Assembly: GCF_988243305.1 (NCBI RefSeq)
Contig: NZ_OZ547136.1
DNA length: 64,000 nucleotides
Reading direction: 5' to 3' (one strand)
In this document: positions 24,186 to 48,811 of the stretch, one piece after another
How the letters are laid out: each line of letters starts with the position of its first letter
Numbering within the stretch: the first letter of the stretch is position 1
Notes under the pieces: model-generated
Told to the model about the DNA's origin: nothing
Database searches by the model: none
Seen by the model: the letters and a program-made list of their open reading frames with translations, nothing else
Made by a program: the position numbers and the translations under genes

Positions 24186-25610
24186 ATGCAACATAAGTTA
24201 CTGATTAACGGAGAACTGGTTAGCGGCGAAGGGGAAAAACAGCCTGTCTATAATCCGGCAACGGGGGACGTTTTACTAGAGATTGCCGAGGCATCCGCAG
24301 AACAGGTGGATGCTGCTGTTCGCGCGGCAGATGCAGCATTTGCCGAATGGGGGCAAACCACGCCGAAAGCGCGTGCGGAATGCCTGCTGAAACTGGCTGA
24401 TGTTATCGAAGAAAATGGTCAGGTTTTAGCCGAACTGGAGTCCCGTAACTGTGGCAAACCGCTGCATAGTGCGTTCAATGATGAAATCCCGGCGATTGTC
24501 GATGTCTTTCGCTTTTTCGCCGGAGCAGCTCGCTGCCTGAATGGTCTGGCGGCAGGTGAATATCTTGAAGGTCATACTTCGATGATCCGTCGCGATCCGT
24601 TGGGGGTCGTGGCTTCTATCGCACCGTGGAATTATCCGCTGATGATGGCTGCGTGGAAACTGGCTCCGGCGCTGGCGGCAGGGAACTGCGTAGTGCTTAA
24701 ACCATCAGAAATTACCCCGCTGACAGCGTTGAAGTTGGCAGAGCTGGCGAAAGATATCTTCCCGGCTGGCGTGATTAATGTACTGTTTGGCAGAGGCAAA
24801 ACGGTGGGCGATCCGCTGACCGGTCATCCCAAAGTGCGGATGGTGTCGCTGACGGGCTCTATCGCCACTGGGGAACACATCATCAGCCATACCGCGCCGT
24901 CCATAAAGCGTACTCATATGGAACTTGGTGGCAAAGCGCCAGTGATAGTTTTTGATGATGCGGATATTGAAGCGGTGGTCGAAGGTGTACGTACTTTTGG
25001 CTATTACAATGCCGGACAGGATTGTACAGCGGCTTGTCGGATCTATGCGCAAAAAGGCATTTACGATACGCTGGTGGAAAAAATGGGTGCTGCAGTGGCA
25101 ACGTTAAAATCGGGTGCGCCGGATGACGACTCTACGGAGCTTGGACCTTTAAGTTCGCTGGCGCATCTCGAACGCGTCAGCAAGGCGGTAGAAGAGGCGA
25201 AAGCGACAGGGCACATCAAAGTGATCACTGGCGGTGAAAAGCGCAAGGGTAATGGCTATTACTATGCGCCAACGCTACTGGCTGGCGCATTACAGGACGA
25301 TGCCATCGTGCAAAAAGAGGTATTTGGTCCGGTAGTGAGTGTTACGCTCTTCGACAATGAAGAACAGGTGGTAAACTGGGCAAATGACAGCCAGTACGGA
25401 CTTGCATCCTCGGTATGGACGAAAGATGTGGGCAGGGCGCATCGCGTCAGCGCACGGCTGCAATATGGTTGTACCTGGGTCAATACCCATTTCATGCTGG
25501 TAAGTGAAATGCCGCACGGTGGGCAGAAACTTTCTGGTTACGGCAAGGATATGTCACTTTATGGGCTGGAGGATTACACCGTCGTCCGCCACGTCATGGT
25601 TAAACATTAA
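24186..25610 (+). CDS. patD: gamma-aminobutyraldehyde dehydrogenase
   Basis: 474-aa aldehyde dehydrogenase-family ORF (ELGGKAP; catalytic Cys in GQDCTA context). Confidence 0.9.
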
Positions 25611-25832
25611 GTTAAATGTTAGTGGCTGTTATAGGGCGGCCACTATCGTTTTAGGTTCTGAGTGTAATGGTGATTAAGTATCAGAATGATTACATTAATA
25701 ACTAGCGGAAAAATTAGGCAGTTATTATGATCTAAATGTATGTTGGTGATTTTTCATCCTGTCATAGTTGATTCGCATAAGGCTTTAGAGTATCGTTATT
25801 AACCTAATAATTTATAAGTAGAAGTATTAACA

Positions 25833-26642
25833 ATGAAAGTTCAATTGTATAAATTCACGGAAGATAAAAATAAAACCCTTACCTTCAGGTGGACGAAAAA
25901 ACACTTTGAGTTTTGTATGGATAATAAAATCTTTTTAAATCATAAGGGGAAGAAGTCGTATAAAGAAAGAAATTTATTTCTTTTCTCAAAAGGTGACAAG
26001 ATAACAATTGAAGATAATGTTATTGCTGAAGAATATTCAACAATGCCTGTAAAAAATTTCTCCAGTGTCGGCGCTTTTTCATTCCCGACCTGTCATTTTA
26101 CAGGGAATATACATATAGGTCGATTTTGTAGTATTGCATCAAATGTAAAAATAATGGGTGGAAATCATCCTTTGAATCGTTTTACTACTCACATGATGAC
26201 TTATAACGGTGAATTTGATAAGTTTGCTAAGAGTGAGTTTGAACGTAGCTGGACATTGAAACCATTCATTACCAAACCTGAAAATCCGATTATAGGAAAT
26301 GATGTCTGGATAGGAAATGATGTTGTACTGAAAGGTGGCATCGCAATAGGTGATGGTGCTGTTATTGCTGCCAATTCCGTTGTTACCAAAGATGTGCCCC
26401 CATATGCCATAGTTGCAGGAGTTCCTGCAAAAATAATCAGATTTAGATTTGATTCAAATGTTATTGATGAATTGTTGAGAATAAAGTGGTGGAATTATAA
26501 TTACTCAGATCTTCCGGATAATAACAAATGTGATGATATAAATTATTTTGTTGAAGAGATGAATCGATTGATATCAAATGGAAATATTCAAGAGATGGAC
26601 TATAAAAAATTCAATCTTTCTGAGATATTTAGAGACCTATAA
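25833..26642 (+). CDS. xenobiotic acetyltransferase (XAT class, Vat/CatB-like hexapeptide-repeat)
   Basis: C-terminal 200 aa closely parallels streptogramin and chloramphenicol acetyltransferases (IGNDVWIGNDVVLKGGIAIGDGAVIAANSVVTKDVPPYAIVAGVPAKIIRFRF...IKWWNY); true start may be internal; AT-rich gene. Confidence 0.75.
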   Translation: MKVQLYKFTEDKNKTLTFRWTKKHFEFCMDNKIFLNHKGKKSYKERNLFLFSKGDKITIEDNVIAEEYSTMPVKNFSSVGAFSFPTCHFTGNIHIGRFCSIASNVKIMGGNHPLNRFTTHMMTYNGEFDKFAKSEFERSWTLKPFITKPENPIIGNDVWIGNDVVLKGGIAIGDGAVIAANSVVTKDVPPYAIVAGVPAKIIRFRFDSNVIDELLRIKWWNYNYSDLPDNNKCDDINYFVEEMNRLISNGNIQEMDYKKFNLSEIFRDL

Positions 26643-27043
26643 TTATCTGTTCTGCATTATAAATGGGCAAGATAACCAGTGCGGGGTTTGCAATTTCAAT
26701 GGGACAGCGTCATCAAGGAGGTTGCAATCATCCTGCCATGCATATACTTTACGCCATCTTTTTATATTTACTTTATTCCCTGAAAGTATAAAGCATTTAT
26801 AGACTCCCGCGCGTCTAAAGTATTGATGATAGAAAAATGTGAAAACAAGGTTCCCTTTGAATCAGTAAGCTGTCTGTATAGACGACAGGAGGGGGATGTT
26901 TTCTACTTATTTCAATGTAGATGTCAGGAAAAAGAAGTAAATATTAAGGATAATGTTGTAAACCTGGAGAGTATGAGATGATCTTGCGAACTGTCAGAGC
27001 ACTGATTTCTCTGACAGTACGTGCTGCGTGCAAAATCACTACA

Positions 27044-27139
27044 TCAAATAAACCAGCCAAATCTCATAGAGATAAGAGTAAACAAACCAACAGCAGCAAA
27101 GACATTTATCAGTACTACAGTTCTACTGGAAACATTCAT
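27044..27139 (-). CDS. yncL: small membrane protein YncL (31 aa)
   Basis: Hand-translated minus-strand ORF MNVSSRTVVLINVFAAVGLFTLISMRFGWFI; single TM helix. Confidence 0.75.
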   Translation of the reverse strand: MNVSSRTVVLINVFAAVGLFTLISMRFGWFI

Positions 27140-40573: not shown

Positions 40574-41699
40574 AAATCATATTGGTTGTCGTGAATCGAA
40601 GTACGTTGCGATATGTATTGCGCCTGATGTCTGCAAGGTTGGTGATGCGATAGTGCCGTTTGACAGCTTTCAGAACCTGACACATGAGAAAATTTATATC
40701 AGCAATGTCAGGGCACGGGGCAATCCAATACTGACCGTGGACTGTATTATTGCAGGTACACGAAGTAATGCCGGGAAAGGTGTCAGTTCTGGCACCAGTC
40801 TGGGCAGCGGTGACTGCCGGATACTGACAGGCGTGGATCATATAAAGTGCAAGGGAAAGCCGGTAGCCAGGAATCTTTCGCTGGTTGCCATGAATAATGA
40901 TAATACTGTTGGAAAACTGTATACCCAGACAAACCCGCCAAATCAGATAATACCTGTTAAAGAATCATCGCTTTGGGCCAAGTATCTGGAACTGCAAATA
41001 CAACAGCAAGAGTTTGAGCTTGAGTCCAAAAAGCAAGAAGCAGATGCAATGATAGGATTAGGCAAGGCATTTATTAATGGCTGGTATATGTTGGGTGCAT
41101 TGATTGCCAAAGGTCAGATGCAAAATGACATTGCCCAAATGGAAAGTAATATTGCTCTGGCGAGAGGGTTGGGGATGGATACCCAAATTATGGAGCGGGC
41201 GAATGAGACCAACAGGGAGGTAATGGAAACTATTGATCCTAGAGAGCCATTGTTGAAACCTGCCAATGAAACCCAAGCAATGGCGATGGAGGTTGAGCCA
41301 TGGCTGGAACTTATGACCGGGGTTGGAGCACTGGTGAAAGGTTTGGTCAAGTTTTCAGCGAAGTTTGCAATAAAATCGGTTGGCAGAATGGGGAGGAGCG
41401 GTGCTAAAATTGTGCTGGATGCAAATGGATTGCCTATTCCTGTTCCTCCAAGCGTTGGCGCTGCGGGAAGAGTTCCGAGAGTATTACAAACTGGAGGTAA
41501 TACTCTTGAGGCAAGAACTGCCAGGGAGTTAAATGAATTTTTTGGTAAAAATATTAACAGGAGAGAATGGGGGAAAGCTTTAGAAAAGTTGAAAAAAGAT
41601 TTACGCTTACGAGGTGATCACCATGGTCGAATACTTGATAATGGTGATTATATTGATGACTCAGGAAATATTTTAGGAAACATAGAAGATTATTTATGA
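40566..41699 (+). CDS. candidate T6SS effector with N-terminal PAAR-like (DUF4150-type) domain and unassigned C-terminal domain
   Basis: 377-aa ORF; N-terminal Cys-containing module (VAICIAPDVCKVGDAIVPF...GKPVARNLSLVAMNNDNTVG); helical linker; divergent C-terminal ~110 aa; AT-rich. Confidence 0.6.
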   Translation: MAENHIGCRESKYVAICIAPDVCKVGDAIVPFDSFQNLTHEKIYISNVRARGNPILTVDCIIAGTRSNAGKGVSSGTSLGSGDCRILTGVDHIKCKGKPVARNLSLVAMNNDNTVGKLYTQTNPPNQIIPVKESSLWAKYLELQIQQQEFELESKKQEADAMIGLGKAFINGWYMLGALIAKGQMQNDIAQMESNIALARGLGMDTQIMERANETNREVMETIDPREPLLKPANETQAMAMEVEPWLELMTGVGALVKGLVKFSAKFAIKSVGRMGRSGAKIVLDANGLPIPVPPSVGAAGRVPRVLQTGGNTLEARTARELNEFFGKNINRREWGKALEKLKKDLRLRGDHHGRILDNGDYIDDSGNILGNIEDYL

Positions 41700-42175
41700 T
41701 TAAGAATATACAATCAAGGCTTACCCCGATATCTCATGAATATCCAAGTTGTGATGAGTGCTATGCTAGCCTCTTGATTTACACAGGTAATACTCACCCT
41801 AATGAAATAAGTATTCACTTAGAACTTGAGCCAACATCAATTAATATAAAAGGAGATGAAATTATTACTCTATCGGGAAAGAAAAGATATGCAAAAAATT
41901 CATATTGGATGCTCTCGTCAGAAAATCTAGTGAACTCGAAAGATATTCGAGAACATCTGGATTGGCTACTTCACAAACTTGGACCTAAATCATCAAATAT
42001 TGCAAAATTGCAAGCATTAGAAAATATTTCAATGGGTATTGACTGTACCTGGAGATCATTGAATTGGCACGGTGGGCCAACTTTATGGCCTGAGCAGATG
42101 AAAATAATGGCTAATCTTGGATTGGAGTGTTCATTTGATATTTATTTCGTCGGCAATGAAGATGGCAATCTTTAA
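41696..42175 (+). CDS. candidate cognate immunity protein (cytoplasmic)
   Basis: 159-aa ORF, ATGA overlap with effector stop, no signal peptide, AT-rich; role inferred from position only. Confidence 0.45.
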   Translation: MIKNIQSRLTPISHEYPSCDECYASLLIYTGNTHPNEISIHLELEPTSINIKGDEIITLSGKKRYAKNSYWMLSSENLVNSKDIREHLDWLLHKLGPKSSNIAKLQALENISMGIDCTWRSLNWHGGPTLWPEQMKIMANLGLECSFDIYFVGNEDGNL

Positions 42176-42288
42176 TTATTGCTCGCAAATTTTTAATAAA
42201 CAAATAGCACAATAAAATACTCGGTATCTATGGTATATACCTAATAAACAAGGGCAGGGAAAGATCATCAGAAGTACACTTTTTGTAC

Positions 42289-43580
42289 CAGGGAAAGATC
42301 ACGTAACGCTGCTTTTTTGTACTAAATAATTCGCATTTTATGTTTAAAAATTGAGATATTCCTCATTACCTGAAGCTGTTTTTTATTGAGTATACATGAT
42401 CAAATACTCCTTACATAATTAAGGAGAACACAATGGAACTTAAAAAATTGATGGAACATATTTCTATTATCCCCGATTACAGACAAGCCTGGAAAGTGGA
42501 GCATAAATTGTCGGATATTCTACTGTTGACTATTTGTGCCGTTATTTCTGGTGCAGAAGGCTGGGAAGATATAGAGGATTTTGGGGAAACACATCTCGAT
42601 TTTTTAAAACAATACGGTTATTTTGAAAATGGTATTCCTGTTCACGATACCATCGCCAGAGTTGTATCCTGTATCAGTCCTGCAAAATTTCACGAGTGCT
42701 TTATTAACTGGATGCGAGATTGCCATACTTCAGATGATAAAGACGTCATCACAATTGATGGAAAAACGCTCCGGCACTCTTATGACAAGAGTCGCCGCAG
42801 GGGAGCGATTCATGTCATTAGTGCGTTCTCAACAATGCACAGCCTGGTCATCGGACAGATCAAGACGGATGAGAAATCCAATGAGATTACAGCTATCCCA
42901 GAACTTCTTAACATGCTGGATATTAAAGGAAAAATCATCACAACTGATGCGATGGGTTGCCAGAAAGATATTGCAGAGAAGATACAAAAACAGGGAGGTG
43001 ATTATTTATTCGCTGTAAAAGGAAACCAGGGGCGGCTAAATAAAGCCTTCGAGGAAAAATTTCCGCTGAAAGAATTAAATAATCCAGAGCATGACAGTTA
43101 CGCAATTAGTGAAAAGAGTCACGGCAGAGAAGAAATCCGTCTTCACATTGTTTGCGATGTCCCTGATGAACTTATTGATTTCACGTTTGAATGGAAAGGT
43201 CTGAAGAAATTATGCGTGACAGTCTCCTTTCGGTCAATAATAGCAGAACAAAAGAAAGAGCCAGAAATGACGGTCAGATATTATATCAGTTCTGCTGATT
43301 TAACCGCAGAGAAGTTCGCCACAGCAATCCGAAACCACTGGCACGTGGAGAATAAGCTGCACTGGCGTCTGGACGTGGTAATGAATGAAGACGACTGCAA
43401 AATAAGAAGAGGAAATGCCGCAGAATTATTTTCAGGGATACGGCACATCGCTATTAATATTTTAACGAATGATAAGGTATTCAAGGCAGGGTTAAGATGT
43501 AAGATGCGAAAAGCAGCCATGGACAGAAACTACCTGGCGTCAGTCCTTGCTGGGAGCGGGCTTTCGTAATCTTGCCCTGG
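42289..43580 (+). mobile_element. H-repeat element (ISAs1-family), intact copy
   Basis: About 1.3 kb bounded by imperfect terminal inverted repeats (left CCAGGGAAAGATCACG, right CGTAATCTTGCCCTGG) enclosing one 378-aa transposase ORF. Confidence 0.8.
42433..43569 (+). CDS. H-repeat-associated protein / ISAs1-family transposase (YdcC/YhhI-like)
   Basis: 378-aa [35 protein letters not shown]... matching recalled E. coli H-repeat proteins. Confidence 0.88.
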
Positions 43581-44087: not shown

Positions 44088-46166
44088 TTGATAATGATAA
44101 TCAGCCCTCCAATATTGCATGCGCATATAGACACTGAAAAAGACTCTGACTGGGTAAACAGAATGATGTCTGTTGATCCAGAGAGAAATTTCCCAATGAA
44201 TAGCGGTCGTTCTTGGCATGGTGGAGTTCATTTGAACGGCAATCTGTCAGAGACTGTTAGGTGTATTGCCGATGGGAAGGTTATTTCAATACGCCAGCCA
44301 GAACCAGCGAAAAATACAGTTCCCCCGTTAAATTATAACGGAGTTACGGATAAAGGCTATGTTCTGATAAAACATGAAACAGAAATCGGTAGTGGAGAAG
44401 AGGGTAAAATCGTCTATTACTCATTATATATGCACCTGAGAAGCATTGACAGTAATGTGCAGCCGGGAAACACGCTATACCGGAAAGAACCGGTTGGTGC
44501 AGCAGGGATGGTGGACGGACAGAACGCCTTTCATTTTCAGATTTTTTGTGATGATGAAAACATTCAGAAAATCACAGGAAGAATATCACCGGAAACAGAC
44601 CTGAATAAAGATGGACGAACTAATGTGGTTTACGGTGATAGTCATTTTTATCTCCCTACCGGAACACCGATTTATGGGGACATGCCGGAAGAAAACTCGC
44701 TTGCGAACAACAGTCCGGTACAAAGAACCAGCGTGCCATTGTATGTCACAATGAGTTTTGATAAAGGCAATTGTACGATGGTGACGCGTCAGCAGCATGA
44801 AGTGCTGAGTGATTCCTATACTGAAGTAGGTTCTCCCTTGATTAATGCTGATGGTAAGGATTATGAATACAATCTCTATTCCTACGCGCTGCAACTCTAT
44901 CCGAAAAGCCCAAGTGCCGGTTATGAGATGCTGCGTTTTGGTCGGGTTGTTAATACAGAATATGAAGAATTAGTCCCGGCGGATGCGCCGCTGTGGAGAA
45001 CAATCAATACGCCACAGGGTAAAGGCGTTGTTAACTTAGGGGCGAGAGATATCAGGGTTTACAGCGACGGTGATTTTCCACACTGGACAGGGTGGAAACT
45101 GGTGAACGATGATGCGGACACCAACAGCCAGTGCAATTCACCAACAATCCTGTGTACAACCCGCAATGACCTAAGTCGGATGATTTGTCATTTTCCGCTA
45201 GAATGGGACAGCGCCACCGTGGAATCACGGTTTGAGTGGCTGAAATCACCCAATGACGTATTGAGTAAGCCGATGACAGAGCCTGACCTGGATTTGCTGA
45301 TAGAACACTGTAAGGCGCTTTGTTTGGTAGAGAATCCGTTACCTGCCAGGCGTGTATGGCATTTTGATCCCAGGCAGTTTATTGCACATTTCAGGAAATG
45401 TGGATGGTTAGGAGAAAATGATATTATAAGTGTGGTAAGACGTTATCAAAATGCTTATCCCATGACATCAGAACTTACAAGACCATTAAGTAAAGACACT
45501 CTAATTGAGCGGATTACTAGCCAAGGACAAAATAGCAGTGGTGAGATGATAAGACCTGCAGGGTTGAAAAATGAACTGTCAAAGTCACTAAGGAAGTACT
45601 TAATTACAACCCCATTGCGGATTGCGCATTATTTCGGTCAGATGGCGAGAGAAACAGGCAGATTTTCGTCTTTTATAGAGAATGGTGATTTGAGTTATTT
45701 TGATATGTATGAGCCAGGAACAGAACAGGGACTTAAGCTTGGAAATAATGTTGTTGGTGATGGTGCAAGATTTAAAGGCAGAGGTACCATACATCTAACT
45801 GGTCGTGAGAATTATAGAAATTATGGAAAGTATAGAAATCCGTCAGATGATGATTTTTTTACTACAGGACCCAATAACCAACTCCCAGTTGAAAATGCCT
45901 ATTTTTCTTGCGATGCCGGGGGATACTTTTGGGCAAGTAAGCAAAAATACATAATGGTAAGCCATCGATTGACACCTAGTGGTAGTTTAGGCGTTAATTA
46001 TTGGGCGGATAAAGGATGTAGTTTGTCACATGCCAGAGAAGTTACACGGCGAATAAACCCAGCAGCAGATGGCTTCGATTTAGTACGTTGGCCAGCATTT
46101 GAGCATTCTTGGTATGTATTGAATGATGAAATAACACCTCCACTTAATTACATAAGGATTGTTTAA
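44088..46166 (+). CDS. predicted two-domain peptidoglycan hydrolase: M23/LytM-like N-terminal domain plus GH19-like (lysozyme/chitinase-family) C-terminal domain; candidate T6SS cargo effector
   Basis: 692-aa AT-rich ORF. N-terminal region follows the M23 motif order (WHGGVHL, ADGKVISI, GYVLIKHE, YYSLYMHL, NAFHFQIF). C-terminal region carries GH19 hallmarks (YFGQMARETGRF and KGRGTIHLTGRENYRNYG). Start codon uncertain. Confidence 0.6.
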   Translation: MIMIISPPILHAHIDTEKDSDWVNRMMSVDPERNFPMNSGRSWHGGVHLNGNLSETVRCIADGKVISIRQPEPAKNTVPPLNYNGVTDKGYVLIKHETEIGSGEEGKIVYYSLYMHLRSIDSNVQPGNTLYRKEPVGAAGMVDGQNAFHFQIFCDDENIQKITGRISPETDLNKDGRTNVVYGDSHFYLPTGTPIYGDMPEENSLANNSPVQRTSVPLYVTMSFDKGNCTMVTRQQHEVLSDSYTEVGSPLINADGKDYEYNLYSYALQLYPKSPSAGYEMLRFGRVVNTEYEELVPADAPLWRTINTPQGKGVVNLGARDIRVYSDGDFPHWTGWKLVNDDADTNSQCNSPTILCTTRNDLSRMICHFPLEWDSATVESRFEWLKSPNDVLSKPMTEPDLDLLIEHCKALCLVENPLPARRVWHFDPRQFIAHFRKCGWLGENDIISVVRRYQNAYPMTSELTRPLSKDTLIERITSQGQNSSGEMIRPAGLKNELSKSLRKYLITTPLRIAHYFGQMARETGRFSSFIENGDLSYFDMYEPGTEQGLKLGNNVVGDGARFKGRGTIHLTGRENYRNYGKYRNPSDDDFFTTGPNNQLPVENAYFSCDAGGYFWASKQKYIMVSHRLTPSGSLGVNYWADKGCSLSHAREVTRRINPAADGFDLVRWPAFEHSWYVLNDEITPPLNYIRIV

Positions 46167-46170
46167 AACA

Positions 46171-46674
46171 ATGAATTTTAAAAAAACAATAATCACTTCG
46201 GTAGGTTTGATATTTATTTCATTCTCTTTTGTGGCAGAGTGCTCTCAACTCAAAAATTTGAATAATTACTCAGTGATGCTTTGTGGAAAAGTGTCAAGTA
46301 ATATCCTTGATGATATTGGTGGTTATAAAGAAAGAGATAAAAAATCCGAAATGGTAGATTTACTTATATTAATTAGTAATGACGAGCCTATCGGTGTTTC
46401 TGAGACCAAAGTGATTTCTAATGGTAAAATATATTTTAAGGGGGAAAGTACTATGAACTTGGATGCCTCATTCATTATGACAATAAATGGTGGAGTTCAT
46501 ACTGACACTGTCACTTATATATCAAAGAAGAATAAAATTATCGGGGGCTACTTTTATAATAATGAGAGTAAAACTGATAAGCTTAAGGAAGTATATATCT
46601 CAAACACAGGAACTGTATATCATATAAATATTGAAAGTGTCAGCGATGATAAATGTCTTGATAAATTTAAGTAA
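46171..46674 (+). CDS. candidate periplasmic immunity protein (signal peptide)
   Basis: 167-aa ORF from ATG 46171 (MNFKKTIITSVGLIFISFSFVAECSQ...), 4 nt after the hydrolase stop; cleavable Sec-type signal; very AT-rich. Confidence 0.45.
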   Translation: MNFKKTIITSVGLIFISFSFVAECSQLKNLNNYSVMLCGKVSSNILDDIGGYKERDKKSEMVDLLILISNDEPIGVSETKVISNGKIYFKGESTMNLDASFIMTINGGVHTDTVTYISKKNKIIGGYFYNNESKTDKLKEVYISNTGTVYHINIESVSDDKCLDKFK

Positions 46675-46942
46675 CGATAAGGCAAGGATGATTGATTGGG
46701 TTTAGTTAAGTTTCGAGAACAAATTTCCGCGGCAGAGAGTATAAATGTAGGGGCAAGAATGCTAAAATCGTGAAGTGCACCACAACTATAATTCCAGTTT
46801 ACTTTGTTTATTTGATTGTAATTTAACCATTAAATGATTAGGTTTTTTAGAAAAGGACGTCTGATGAATGTTTAAATTAATTTTGAATACATTTCAATTA
46901 TTTTGTTGTATGTTGGCAAGGTCAAATAAGACATAATTTAAT

Positions 46943-47645
46943 GGCAGGGAAAGATCATCGTAAGTACACTTTTTGTACTAAATAATTTGCATTTTATGTT
47001 TAAAAATTGAGATATTCCTCATCACCTGAAGCTGTTTTTTATTACTTATATATGATCAAATACTCCTTACATAAATAAGGAGAACAAAATGGAACTTAAA
47101 AAATTGATGGAACATATTTCTATTATCCCCGATTACAGACAAGCCTGGAAAGTGGAACATAAATTATCGGATATTCTACTGTTGACTATTTGTGCTGTTA
47201 TTTCTGGTGCAGAAGGATGGGAAGATATAGAGGATTTTGGGGAAACACATCTCGATTTTTTGAAGCAATATTGTGATTTTGATAATGGTATTCCTGTTCA
47301 CGATACCATTGCCAGAGTTGTATCCTGTATCAGTCCTGAAAAATTTCATGAGTGCTTTATTAACTGGATGCTTGACTGCCATTCTTCAGATGATAAAGAC
47401 GTCATTGCAATTGATGGAAAAACGCTCCGGTACTCTTATGACAAGAGTCGTCGCAAGGGAGCGATTCACGTTATTAGTGTGTTCTCAATAATGCACAGTC
47501 AGATTCCTTGGAAGATCAAGACGAATGAAAAAAACAATGAGATTACAGCTGTTTCTGAATTTCTTAACATAATGGGTATTAAAGGAAAAATAATTGCACC
47601 GATCCAATGTGATACCAGAAAGACATCGCTAAGAAGATAGCTATA
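46943..47645 (+). mobile_element. H-repeat element, 3'-truncated and degenerate copy
   Basis: Left end and first ~550 bp of transposase gene near-identical to the intact copy, then frameshifted (..[20 protein letters not shown]) and lost about 50 nt upstream of the cyclase gene 3' end. Confidence 0.8.
47089..47640 (+). pseudogene. truncated H-repeat transposase
   Basis: 183-aa ORF identical in N-terminus to the 378-aa transposase but terminating early after indels. Confidence 0.8.
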
Positions 47646-47713
47646 GACAATTATTACCCTCCGTCAGCCCTTGTTAAGCGAGGAGAGACGTAATCTGTCC
47701 AGTCCCCTAATGC

Positions 47714-48811
47714 TTATAAAGCCCATCGATTTCGCCCACTTTCTTTCGCCCGGTATAACGCAGCGTCGGCATCTGAAATAATTTGTTCAGCCGTTTTTGC
47801 GGGAGCAGAACAGGTAATCCCCTGACTAACCGTAACGAATGCATTAACAGCAGATGCCTGATGTGGGATAGCTGCCAGTTTAAGTTCTTGCTTCACTCTG
47901 GCTGCTACCGTCTTTGCTTCCGGCAATGTTGCATTAAAAAGTATGATGGCAAACTCTTCGCCACCATAACGGACAACAACATCCTCCGACTGGCGAGTTG
48001 AACGCTGTAGAGCGTCGGCAACTTGTATTAGACAACGATCCCCAGCAGGATGCCCGTAAGTGTCGTTGTAACGTTTAAAAAAATCGACATCCAGCATAAT
48101 AAGAGCAAATGACCCGCCGTTATCCATCGCGTCGTGTAAGATACTGTTCATTGCACGTCGGTTTGCTATCCCAGTTAAAGGATCACGATGTGCTAATGCA
48201 TCAAGGCGATTAATTAACTGGTTGTTATAACTGTTTTGTACCCATGCTTCTTCAAACCAACGTAACAAAATGAGTCGCCCACCATATAGCGCCAGTGAAA
48301 AAATACACCATACAACAGCAAAATGAATATTGATCTGTTGATTAAGCATAAGACTCGCTATTGGAGTGGTGAACCATAAGGGAATGACAAATGCGAGCAA
48401 TGATGGGGTATGGAAATAAAGTGCGACAACGCCACTAAGCATTAATAATACACATAGTGGATAAGCAAACTGCAGCGTCCAGTACGCAATAAAGTGATAA
48501 CTACACCATGACCATAGCAGGCTCAGGGCAACTAATAGCACCTGGATAGGTAATGTTTTTTGCCGAGGGATGAGTAGTAAACCACTGCAAATCAGCAGAA
48601 TACCCGTTGCAGATATATCAATAGAATGTATAAGGCTTTTTTCATTTAACCAGGGTGGAGTAAGGTCATTAAACAGAACACGGCGCAGCAAAATTATCAA
48701 TGCAAAACTGACATTGATAAAAGCAAACCATGGCAAACTAATTGTCATGCCGCGGATAACCATATCGCGGCGTGTTTGCCACGAGTGATGCGTTTTTCTT
48801 CTTTCAGCCAT
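47714..48811 (-). CDS. membrane-anchored diguanylate cyclase (GGDEF domain)
   Basis: 365-aa ORF: N-terminal multi-TM region and C-terminal GGDEF domain with intact RYGGEEF active-site motif; start codon not resolved. Confidence 0.8.
   Translation of the reverse strand: MAERRKTHHSWQTRRDMVIRGMTISLPWFAFINVSFALIILLRRVLFNDLTPPWLNEKSLIHSIDISATGILLICSGLLLIPRQKTLPIQVLLVALSLLWSWCSYHFIAYWTLQFAYPLCVLLMLSGVVALYFHTPSLLAFVIPLWFTTPIASLMLNQQINIHFAVVWCIFSLALYGGRLILLRWFEEAWVQNSYNNQLINRLDALAHRDPLTGIANRRAMNSILHDAMDNGGSFALIMLDVDFFKRYNDTYGHPAGDRCLIQVADALQRSTRQSEDVVVRYGGEEFAIILFNATLPEAKTVAARVKQELKLAAIPHQASAVNAFVTVSQGITCSAPAKTAEQIISDADAALYRAKESGRNRWAL

Follow-up and report, generated by a model that had tools for sequence, protein, structure and literature searches.

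An AT-rich islet between patD and yncL of Escherichia coli with a predicted long-form hexapeptide O-acetyltransferase gene

Does an acetyltransferase gene that resembles vat and catB confer antibiotic resistance on its host, or does its product acetylate something else? This question is raised by the patD/yncL interval in a stretch of 64,000 nucleotides of E. coli DNA (contig NZ_OZ547136.1, RefSeq assembly GCF_988243305.1), which is called the window in the following. Compared with the K-12 derivative Stbl4, the interval contains 1326 additional bases at 25612-26937, as determined by BLAST against the empty site. This AT-rich islet carries a gene for WP_000867994.1, which is named "CatB-related O-acetyltransferase" in RefSeq and "virginiamycin A acetyltransferase" or "antibiotic acetyltransferase" in other sources. 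It is an already annotated but uncharacterised, ordinary accessory gene, and a search of the literature on it found nothing specific. An original prediction, made from the letters of the window, had read it as a horizontally acquired, Vat/CatB-type antibiotic-modifying enzyme. Taken as a whole, the results are best explained, with a probability of roughly 0.6, by an old, strain-variable islet that forms a self-contained unit for a soluble acetyltransferase with a probably sugar-like acceptor.

Fold, catalytic residues and selection

Among solved structures, Vat(D) was the best match (E = 2.5e-29, residues 61-230), and further matches were obtained with VatA, type B and type C chloramphenicol acetyltransferases (CATs), ApmA and PaXAT. 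An AlphaFold2 monomer model calculated from 80 homologues reached a predicted local distance difference test score (pLDDT) of 90.6; Foldseek ranked Vat(D), CatB8 and CatB (E ~1e-11) at the top and ApmA first at rank 36. The protein has the tandem hexapeptide repeats of the left-handed beta-helix superfamily, together with its catalytic His and Trp by alignment. Its closest relatives of solved structure, by sequence as well as by fold, are xenobiotic acetyltransferases (XATs), and like them it has a WW motif in the C-terminal helical region.

The conservation of single residues was counted over 80 long-form homologues. They belong to a long-form XAT-like clade that was defined in this analysis and is not a curated family. 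The motif GGNHPL comprises residues 109-114, and the XAT-like core with a conserved His in this motif, as originally predicted, was confirmed by the Pfam hexapeptide repeats and by the alignment of His112 with His82 of Vat(D). The residue is a His in 79 of the 80 homologues, Pro113 and Trp159 are present in all 80 and W219-W220 are invariant. Trp159 is part of the invariant D157-V158-W159 of the core and aligns with Trp121 of Vat(D).

By homology, the enzyme would be a trimer that binds acetyl-CoA in the cleft between its subunits. Acetyl-CoA-using members have a conserved Trp opposite the catalytic His, which comes from the neighbouring chain (PMC3046976). His112 would be carried by a loop that projects from the helix and is predicted to act as the general base, and Trp159 of the neighbouring subunit would lie opposite to it at the acetyl-CoA site. 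The pair would then support the transfer of the acetyl group to a hydroxyl of the acceptor. Judged from these similarities, the protein is very likely a soluble, probably trimeric, acetyl-CoA-dependent O-acetyltransferase.

The gene is functional and clearly under purifying selection: the ratio of non-synonymous to synonymous substitution rates (dN/dS) is about 0.1, the coding sequence (CDS) has diverged half as much as the non-coding parts of the islet next to it and the gene is intact in most carriers. For the whole gene, dN/dS was 0.08-0.12 within E. coli as well as between genera. The two allele classes described below are separated by 14 synonymous and 7 non-synonymous changes, and the reading frame is full length in the four alleles that were examined.

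Residue 28 of Vat(D) aligns with residue 61, which gives ~33 extra N-terminal residues, and ~40 residues (230-269) extend the C-terminus. Both extensions are common to homologues across phyla, and the C-terminal one was found in the long-form clade only, not in Vat or CatB. The first 70 residues contain 13 Lys (19%) and the remaining 199 residues another 13. This lysine-rich start had been noticed correctly, and it had been suspected that it may not be translated. That suspicion can be dropped since the N-terminus is conserved as protein across genera with a low dN/dS. For codons 1-70, comparison with Citrobacter gave a ratio of 0.068, with Cedecea 0.094 and with Enterobacter sp. Ag1 0.064 (overall range 0.06-0.11), and three synonymous but no non-synonymous changes were counted within E. 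coli. The pattern FRWTKxHxEFCxDNxIFL...RNxxLFxKGDKIxI is kept in orthologues down to 46% identity; the length varies between genera in the first dozen residues only. In the AlphaFold2 model, the beta-helix proper is preceded by a strand at residues 15-19, a helix at 22-30, a flexible loop rich in Lys at 39-46 and another strand at 56-60; the pLDDT is 84-94 for residues 11-30. The N-terminal 84 residues had no match in the PDB better than E = 0.33. A profile search with the module found 31 representative proteins among 1.84 billion, and an XAT-like core was present in all six module-bearing proteins examined in full.

The long-form clade and possible acceptors

Members of the clade are marked by an N-terminal strand-helix module, a catalytic loop that is lengthened by ~11 residues and has the signature HPxxR(F/I)(T/S)T..TY, and an extension of the C-terminus beyond the WW motif. 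The E. coli protein has all three, with His112 in the signature form H-P-x-x-R-F-T-T-x-x-x-T-Y. Some distant long-form members are fused to large extra regions, namely P0151 (1081 aa), P0161 (544 aa) and P0156 (1033 aa); by eye, two ATP-grasp-like regions were seen in P0151 and one in P0161, both of which are among the six module-bearing proteins mentioned above.

In BLASTP, the E. coli protein scored highest with Campylobacter lari P0108 (169 bits, 40% identity, 237 residues) and C. jejuni P0170 (140 bits, 38% identity, 210 residues), with alignments that extend to residues 267-269. VatD followed with 110 bits (38% identity, 204 residues) and CatB3 with 99 bits (40% identity, 150 residues), the CatB3 sequence being a 5'-truncated cassette. 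The Campylobacter proteins share the long-form architecture of 261-276 aa with N-terminal module, XAT-like core and C-terminal extension, they are 38-40% identical over 210-237 residues, and their signature H-P-x-D-R-I-S-T..F-T-Y resembles the H-P-L-N-R-F-T-T..T-Y of the E. coli protein. P0170 has 276 residues and 1560 member sequences. Its gene (X) is located in the order cgtA, GT2, cst, neuB, neuC, neuA, X, GT2, waaF, i.e. at the orf11 position of the class A/B lipooligosaccharide (LOS) loci, and the C. lari gene follows directly after cst-neuB-neuC-neuA. The nearest studied relative thus appears to be Campylobacter Orf11, with which P0170 was equated by gene position. Houliston et al. (2006) reportedly described C. 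jejuni Orf11 as the sialate 9-O-acetyltransferase of the LOS locus. According to three papers (PMC8319020, PMC3513307, PMC2174954), the product of orf11 is a sialate O-acetyltransferase, with acetyl-CoA as the acetyl donor and C-9 of the terminal sialic acid on LOS as the site of transfer. An identity of 38-40% is too low for transferring this substrate specificity to the E. coli protein on sequence grounds. The polysialic-acid O-acetyltransferases NeuO and OatWY (PDB 3jqy, 2wlc) were matched much more weakly (E = 3e-10 and 4e-7, residues ~149-204 only) and are members of another branch within the superfamily.

Other clade members are also located among genes for glycans. The homologue of Enterococcus thailandicus lies in a cell-wall polysaccharide or teichoic-type locus with genes for a glycosyltransferase, a TagGH-like ABC transporter, a glycerol-3-phosphate dehydrogenase, a nucleotidyltransferase and a LytR-family protein. 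In Providencia rettgeri (56% identity), the gene is part of a prophage and is found between tail-fibre/GT52 glycosyltransferase genes and the integrase gene. The region between tail fibre and integrase is a common site of receptor-modifying cargo in temperate phages. In the P. rettgeri prophages (L010 3214-12804, L011/L012), the homologue was seen beside the GT52 gene and a gene for an unannotated 250-aa protein, and either DarT and NADAR genes or a retron-like pair of reverse transcriptase and AAA_21 genes are adjacent. This looks like a combined hot spot for surface modification and defence; an NCBIfam scan of the Providencia neighbour genes gave no matches.

Due to the relationship to Orf11 and the clade members in glycan loci, a sugar is favoured as acceptor over chloramphenicol and streptogramin A. 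By analogy, the acceptor group can tentatively be proposed to be the hydroxyl of a sugar, either in a glycoconjugate intermediate or in a sugar-like small molecule, with somewhat less than even odds for this specific assignment.

Several points weigh against this proposal. It draws on one characterised relative of 38-40% identity and on the neighbourhoods of distant members, P0170 was identified as Orf11 by gene order only, and the margin of the Campylobacter scores over the Vat score is moderate and partly owed to the shared C-terminal extension. While the Campylobacter genes are located inside cst-neuB-neuC-neuA operons, no sialic-acid, glycan or partner gene was found adjoining the E. coli gene; its neighbours are patD, yncL and ortT, and a conserved operon partner was sought without success. 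The closest relatives are likewise solitary with no glycan genes beside them. On its two sides, the Citrobacter gene is flanked by a GNAT gene and by a nucleoside phosphorylase-MFS-Tsx group, the Cedecea gene by a chemoreceptor gene and by DUF1889/colicin genes, and the Rahnella gene by chemoreceptor and M20 peptidase genes; the Photobacterium gene adjoins sbcCD. A solitary gene with its own promoter is a typical layout of a detoxifying enzyme, too. Finally, AT-rich DNA of such kind is often silenced by H-NS, which would concern the expression of the gene. As a separate observation, the Cedecea orthologue (L007/L008 8234-9906) lies ~1.4 kb upstream of a chromosomal gene with a pore-forming colicin domain and its immunity gene.

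A rival explanation is a xenobiotic or antibiotic acetyltransferase that acts on some other, so far unrecognised small molecule and whose XAT active site is reshaped by the N-terminus as in ApmA. Such an enzyme is rather unlikely, and less probable than one with a sugar acceptor, but it keeps its weight because of the solitary, self-promoted gene and the precedent of ApmA. The protein has an XAT-like core whose first helix turns are abutted by the conserved N-terminal module, the closest relatives belong to several genera and have neighbourhoods that are unrelated to one another, and the promoter accompanies the gene. The aminocyclitol N-acetyltransferase ApmA (PDB 7jm0, 7uuj; 274 aa compared with 269) also has extra N-terminal sequence joined to an XAT-like core and shows that such an addition can retarget an XAT (PMC7885111). 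However, the N-terminal region of ApmA (residues 1-82, four strands and two helices) has no detectable counterpart in sequence or structure in the E. coli protein, which scored 81 bits with the ApmA model NF000084 (cut-off 550).

The interpretation given originally, a possibly cryptic resistance enzyme of the Vat/CatB type with streptogramin A or chloramphenicol as the target of O-acetylation, is improbable. It is favoured by Vat(D), VatA and CatB as best matches among solved structures, by the conserved catalytic His, Trp and WW motif, and by a solitary gene with its own promoter, for which the names in some sources imply an antibiotic acetyltransferase. Like the streptogramin A O-acetyltransferases Vat(D) and Vat(A) (PDB 1khr, 4hur), the protein shows the left-handed beta-helix, a protruding loop with the catalytic His, the conserved Trp and a C-terminal helix motif (WWNW in Vat, WWNY here) at ~35-38% identity over 170-204 residues. 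Yet it scored 125.5 bits with the Vat model NF000311 (cut-off 300) and 105.7 bits with the CatB model NF000490 (cut-off 350), so that the cut-offs for Vat, CatB and ApmA were each missed by a factor of at least 2.4. The Campylobacter proteins show the same pattern below the NCBIfam thresholds (TIGR03308 110-122, Vat 98-100, CatB 92). Since these proteins from LOS loci score alike, a Vat/CatB similarity at this level says nothing about an antibiotic substrate. The top NCBIfam match of the E. coli protein was TIGR03308 with 131.6 bits (cut-off 201.65); a phosphonate-associated hexapeptide transferase was rejected given this score and the lack of phn genes nearby.

The active site differs as well. 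The YSYY motif of Vat and CatB reads YSTM in the E. coli protein, where Thr70 replaces the second Tyr; 66 of the 80 clade members have T, M or S at this position. Tyr42 of VatA, which belongs to the YSYY motif, is an oxyanion-stabilising residue (PMC7885111). From the catalytic His onward, the sequence reads HPLNRFTT, whereas VatD has HRMDGSTY and CatB3 has HRYDWASS, and the catalytic loop is ~11 residues longer than in Vat and CatB. With 269 residues and without YSYY, the protein is not a compact XAT of ~210 aa: Vat enzymes have ~209-219 aa and a shorter catalytic loop, with neither the N-terminal module nor the C-terminal extension, and within the group of type B CATs and PaXAT (PDB 3eev, 8j40, 1xat), the CatB proteins have ~210 aa and GHRYDW in place of NHPLNR. 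By its sequence, the E. coli protein is not an orthologue of Vat or CatB. In addition, tblastn against 72,556 plasmids and 50,697 phage records found no copy on true plasmids or in phages. The single "plasmid" with a 100% identical gene is a PLSDB record of 4.94 Mb from E. coli (NZ_CP141089.1), which we regard as a chromosome with a wrong label; under the gene, this record lists neither an AMRFinderPlus nor an RGI prediction.

Extent, distribution and age of the islet

The original prediction had delimited an AT-rich islet with one open reading frame (ORF) at 25620-26900, and both of these ends are within 40 bp of the indel. Its GC content is 33.6%, compared with 53.5% in the 5 kb to the left and 49.8% in the 5 kb to the right, and is within the lowest 1.6% of all 1326-bp segments across the 64 kb. 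The GC profile drops from 0.51-0.58 on the patD side to 0.28-0.37 between ~25600 and ~27250. In Stbl4, the islet is missing and patD and yncL are 96 bp apart; the gene is not conserved in K-12 at this junction, as had been surmised. The islet is bounded by an imperfect direct repeat (Table 1) with its mismatch at 25605/26942, as the two BLAST pieces overlap by exactly 11 bases in the empty site; a match at 10 of 11 positions has a chance of ~4e-5 at the local composition. The junction is not a perfectly clean indel, because 7 of 13 positions differ at 26955-26967, to the right of the right-hand repeat. There, the four islet alleles examined read GTTGTAAACCTGG (one with a single G for A) and the K-12-type empty site reads ATTGCAGATCGTA. 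Beyond this patch, the flanks are 97-99% identical.

The distribution was determined by megablast against 5426 complete E. coli genomes. The flanks were found in 5415 of them and the whole islet in 1154 (~21%). The CDS was present in 1155 genomes, in 1151 of which at least 80% of the gene is in one piece. Two allele classes can be distinguished: 188 genomes have a CDS with an identity of at least 99% to that of the window, and in 963 the CDS falls into a band of 95-99%, with nearly all sampled rows at 97.3-97.4%. The latter class includes O104:H4, O111:H8, O103:H2 and O121 strains, serotypes that we assume to belong to phylogroup B1. The empty site was found in K-12 derivatives and nearly all sampled O157:H7 records, and strain EC10, with a record labelled O157:H7, has the gene. 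At least two genomes (H80, H81) have IS1 inserted in the acetyltransferase gene; in the laboratory stock LAM_HS (H30), IS1A was seen at the patD end of the empty site. Among other Escherichia species, one genome per species was searched with exact E. coli peptides as patterns and the gene was found in no representative genome. The nearest proteins outside E. coli are those of Citrobacter and of a Raoultella metagenome-assembled genome (77-80% identity), followed by those of Cedecea and Enterobacter sp. Ag1 (70-71%).

Between the allele classes, the CDS differs by 2.6%, the flanks by 0.5-1.9% and the non-coding parts of the islet by 5.4-6.7% (tail 5.4-6.1%). The synonymous divergence (dS) of the gene was 0.094 between the window and the O111:H11 strain 8D, and that of the adjacent half of patD was 0.118; for patD, 0.129 was measured between the window and K-12, and 0.08-0.14 overall. 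Given that the dS of the gene matches that of patD, the islet is an old resident of the locus that diverged together with its flanks, and recent horizontal transfer was rejected. Horizontal acquisition, as proposed originally, is plausible by composition but ancient, and no mobility machinery was found. Despite the age of the islet, the GC content at third codon positions (GC3) of 0.28 shows no amelioration toward the host composition. The pattern fits an old islet that was lost later in some lineages, possibly via deletion between the 11-bp repeats; alternatively, an old insertion may have been spread by recombination of its flanks. As further variation within the islet, a 13-bp indel (CAGTTATTATGAT, 25719-25731) separates the allele of the window from the three other alleles examined. 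Strain GF60 combines the upstream region of the ~97.4% class with a CDS that is only 0.9% different from that of the window and looks recombinant within the islet, since the two parts match different allele classes.

A silent relic, i.e. an old horizontally acquired gene that is unused by E. coli and kept by drift, is very improbable: ~79% of the genomes do without the gene at no obvious cost, its GC3 is unadapted to the host, IS1 interrupts it in some strains and functional partner genes are absent nearby, but the purifying selection is clear, with a dN/dS of ~0.1 within E. coli, a CDS twice as conserved as the adjacent non-coding DNA, a full-length frame in each examined allele and allele classes as old as the divergence of the flanking gene.

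Apart from the acetyltransferase gene, no ORF in the 1326 bp reaches 100 aa, which leaves no room for an integrase or transposase gene. No terminal inverted repeats were found at the ends of the islet and no tRNA gene within 20-32 kb. The imperfect 11-bp repeat is the sole feature that resembles a mobile element, and it fits an insertion duplication and a repeat-mediated deletion alike. A plasmid- or phage-borne origin was rejected as the tblastn searches gave no close homologue, and in PHROGs the protein matched only a family of unknown function. A common locus in other genera was rejected, too, because the genes of Citrobacter, Cedecea, Rahnella and Providencia are located in unrelated neighbourhoods.

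When the upstream regions from E. coli (2 alleles), Citrobacter (3), Cedecea and Enterobacter sp. Ag1, i.e. from four genera, were aligned, GTTGAT and TAT..T showed no variation, while the bases around them are not conserved. These positions form a candidate sigma-70 promoter that matches 8 of 12 consensus positions. It was not listed by a consensus scan because this match is below the threshold of the scan, which gave more sites for shuffled sequence than for the real one. At the nucleotide level, similarity to Citrobacter is confined to 25752-26631, and therefore a promoter-plus-gene unit of ~0.9 kb is what the genera share. The left-handed beta-helix enzyme would accordingly be expressed from a promoter of its own that travels with the gene. 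Past the stop codon, no nucleotide similarity was found in Citrobacter or Cedecea, and there was no Rfam match in the islet or its tail. A terminator-like hairpin, which occurs in both allele classes, probably insulates the gene from read-through from patD.

Table 1. Positions of the islet, its flanking genes and the features of the acetyltransferase gene in the window
Feature	Position	Strand	Remarks
patD	24186..25610	+	flanking core gene, outside the islet; stop codon 25608-25610
Direct repeat, left copy	25601..25611	.	TAAACATTAAG; imperfect, 11 bp; overlaps the patD stop
AT-rich islet	25612..26937	.	1326 bp; BLAST against empty site, GC scan
Terminator-like hairpin followed by T-run	25620..25645	+	11-pair stem with 5 G-C pairs; 10 bp past the patD stop
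Candidate sigma-70 promoter	25768..25796	+	TTGATT 25768-25773, 17-nt spacer, TATCGT 25791-25796
CDS of long-form XAT-like hexapeptide O-acetyltransferase	25833..26642	+	269 aa plus stop; RefSeq WP_000867994.1
N-terminal module, codons 1-62	25833..26018	+	absent from Vat/CatB; alignment, dN/dS, AlphaFold2
His112 codon	26166..26168	+	predicted general base; aligns with catalytic His82 of Vat(D)
Hexapeptide-repeat core, residues 151-186	26283..26390	+	Pfam PF00132, E = 1.8e-9
W219-W220 codons	26487..26492	+	C-terminal helical region; WWNY motif common to Vat/CatB
Islet tail	26643..26937	.	295 bp, apparently non-coding
Direct repeat, right copy	26938..26948	.	TAAATATTAAG; imperfect, 11 bp
yncL	27044..27139	-	flanking core gene, outside the islet

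Further AT-rich stretches with a GC content down to 0.31-0.36 were seen in the window at ~40850-43500, 45050-48300 and 61550-64000. According to the annotation of an identical genome, the first contains a type VI secretion system cluster (VgrG/DUF2169/PAAR-like/DUF4279) and an ISEc1 transposase gene, the second a peptidase M23 gene, an ISAs1 remnant and genes for a membrane sensor-domain protein and for hypothetical proteins, and the third a gene for a leucine-rich-repeat protein upstream of narU.

Meaning for E. coli and for the clade

The enterobacterial branch with the proteins of E. coli, Citrobacter, Cedecea, Rahnella, Pectobacterium and Providencia could be a distinct enzyme family, in which the N-terminal cap and the long loop create a new acceptor specificity, although this is a speculative and unlikely reading. 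If it were true, the acceptor might be a sugar from the host or from microbes, for example free or glycan-bound sialic acid of the gut, or an antibiotic of a class not yet linked to XATs. The promoter-plus-gene unit would then spread in the Enterobacterales without a recognisable mobility gene, and in E. coli it would represent a trait associated with lineage, that of the allele class to which O104:H4, O111, O103:H2 and O121 strains belong.

The main use of the present results is to guard against over-calling of resistance genes, as about one fifth of the E. coli genomes contain this Vat/CatB look-alike. It fails every curated threshold of a resistance family and is at least as close to an O-acetyltransferase of surface glycans. 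If the acceptor were found, a function could be assigned to an accessory gene that is widespread and occurs in major non-O157 pathogenic lineages, as well as to the long-form XAT clade, one member of which, Orf11, is linked here to published biochemistry.

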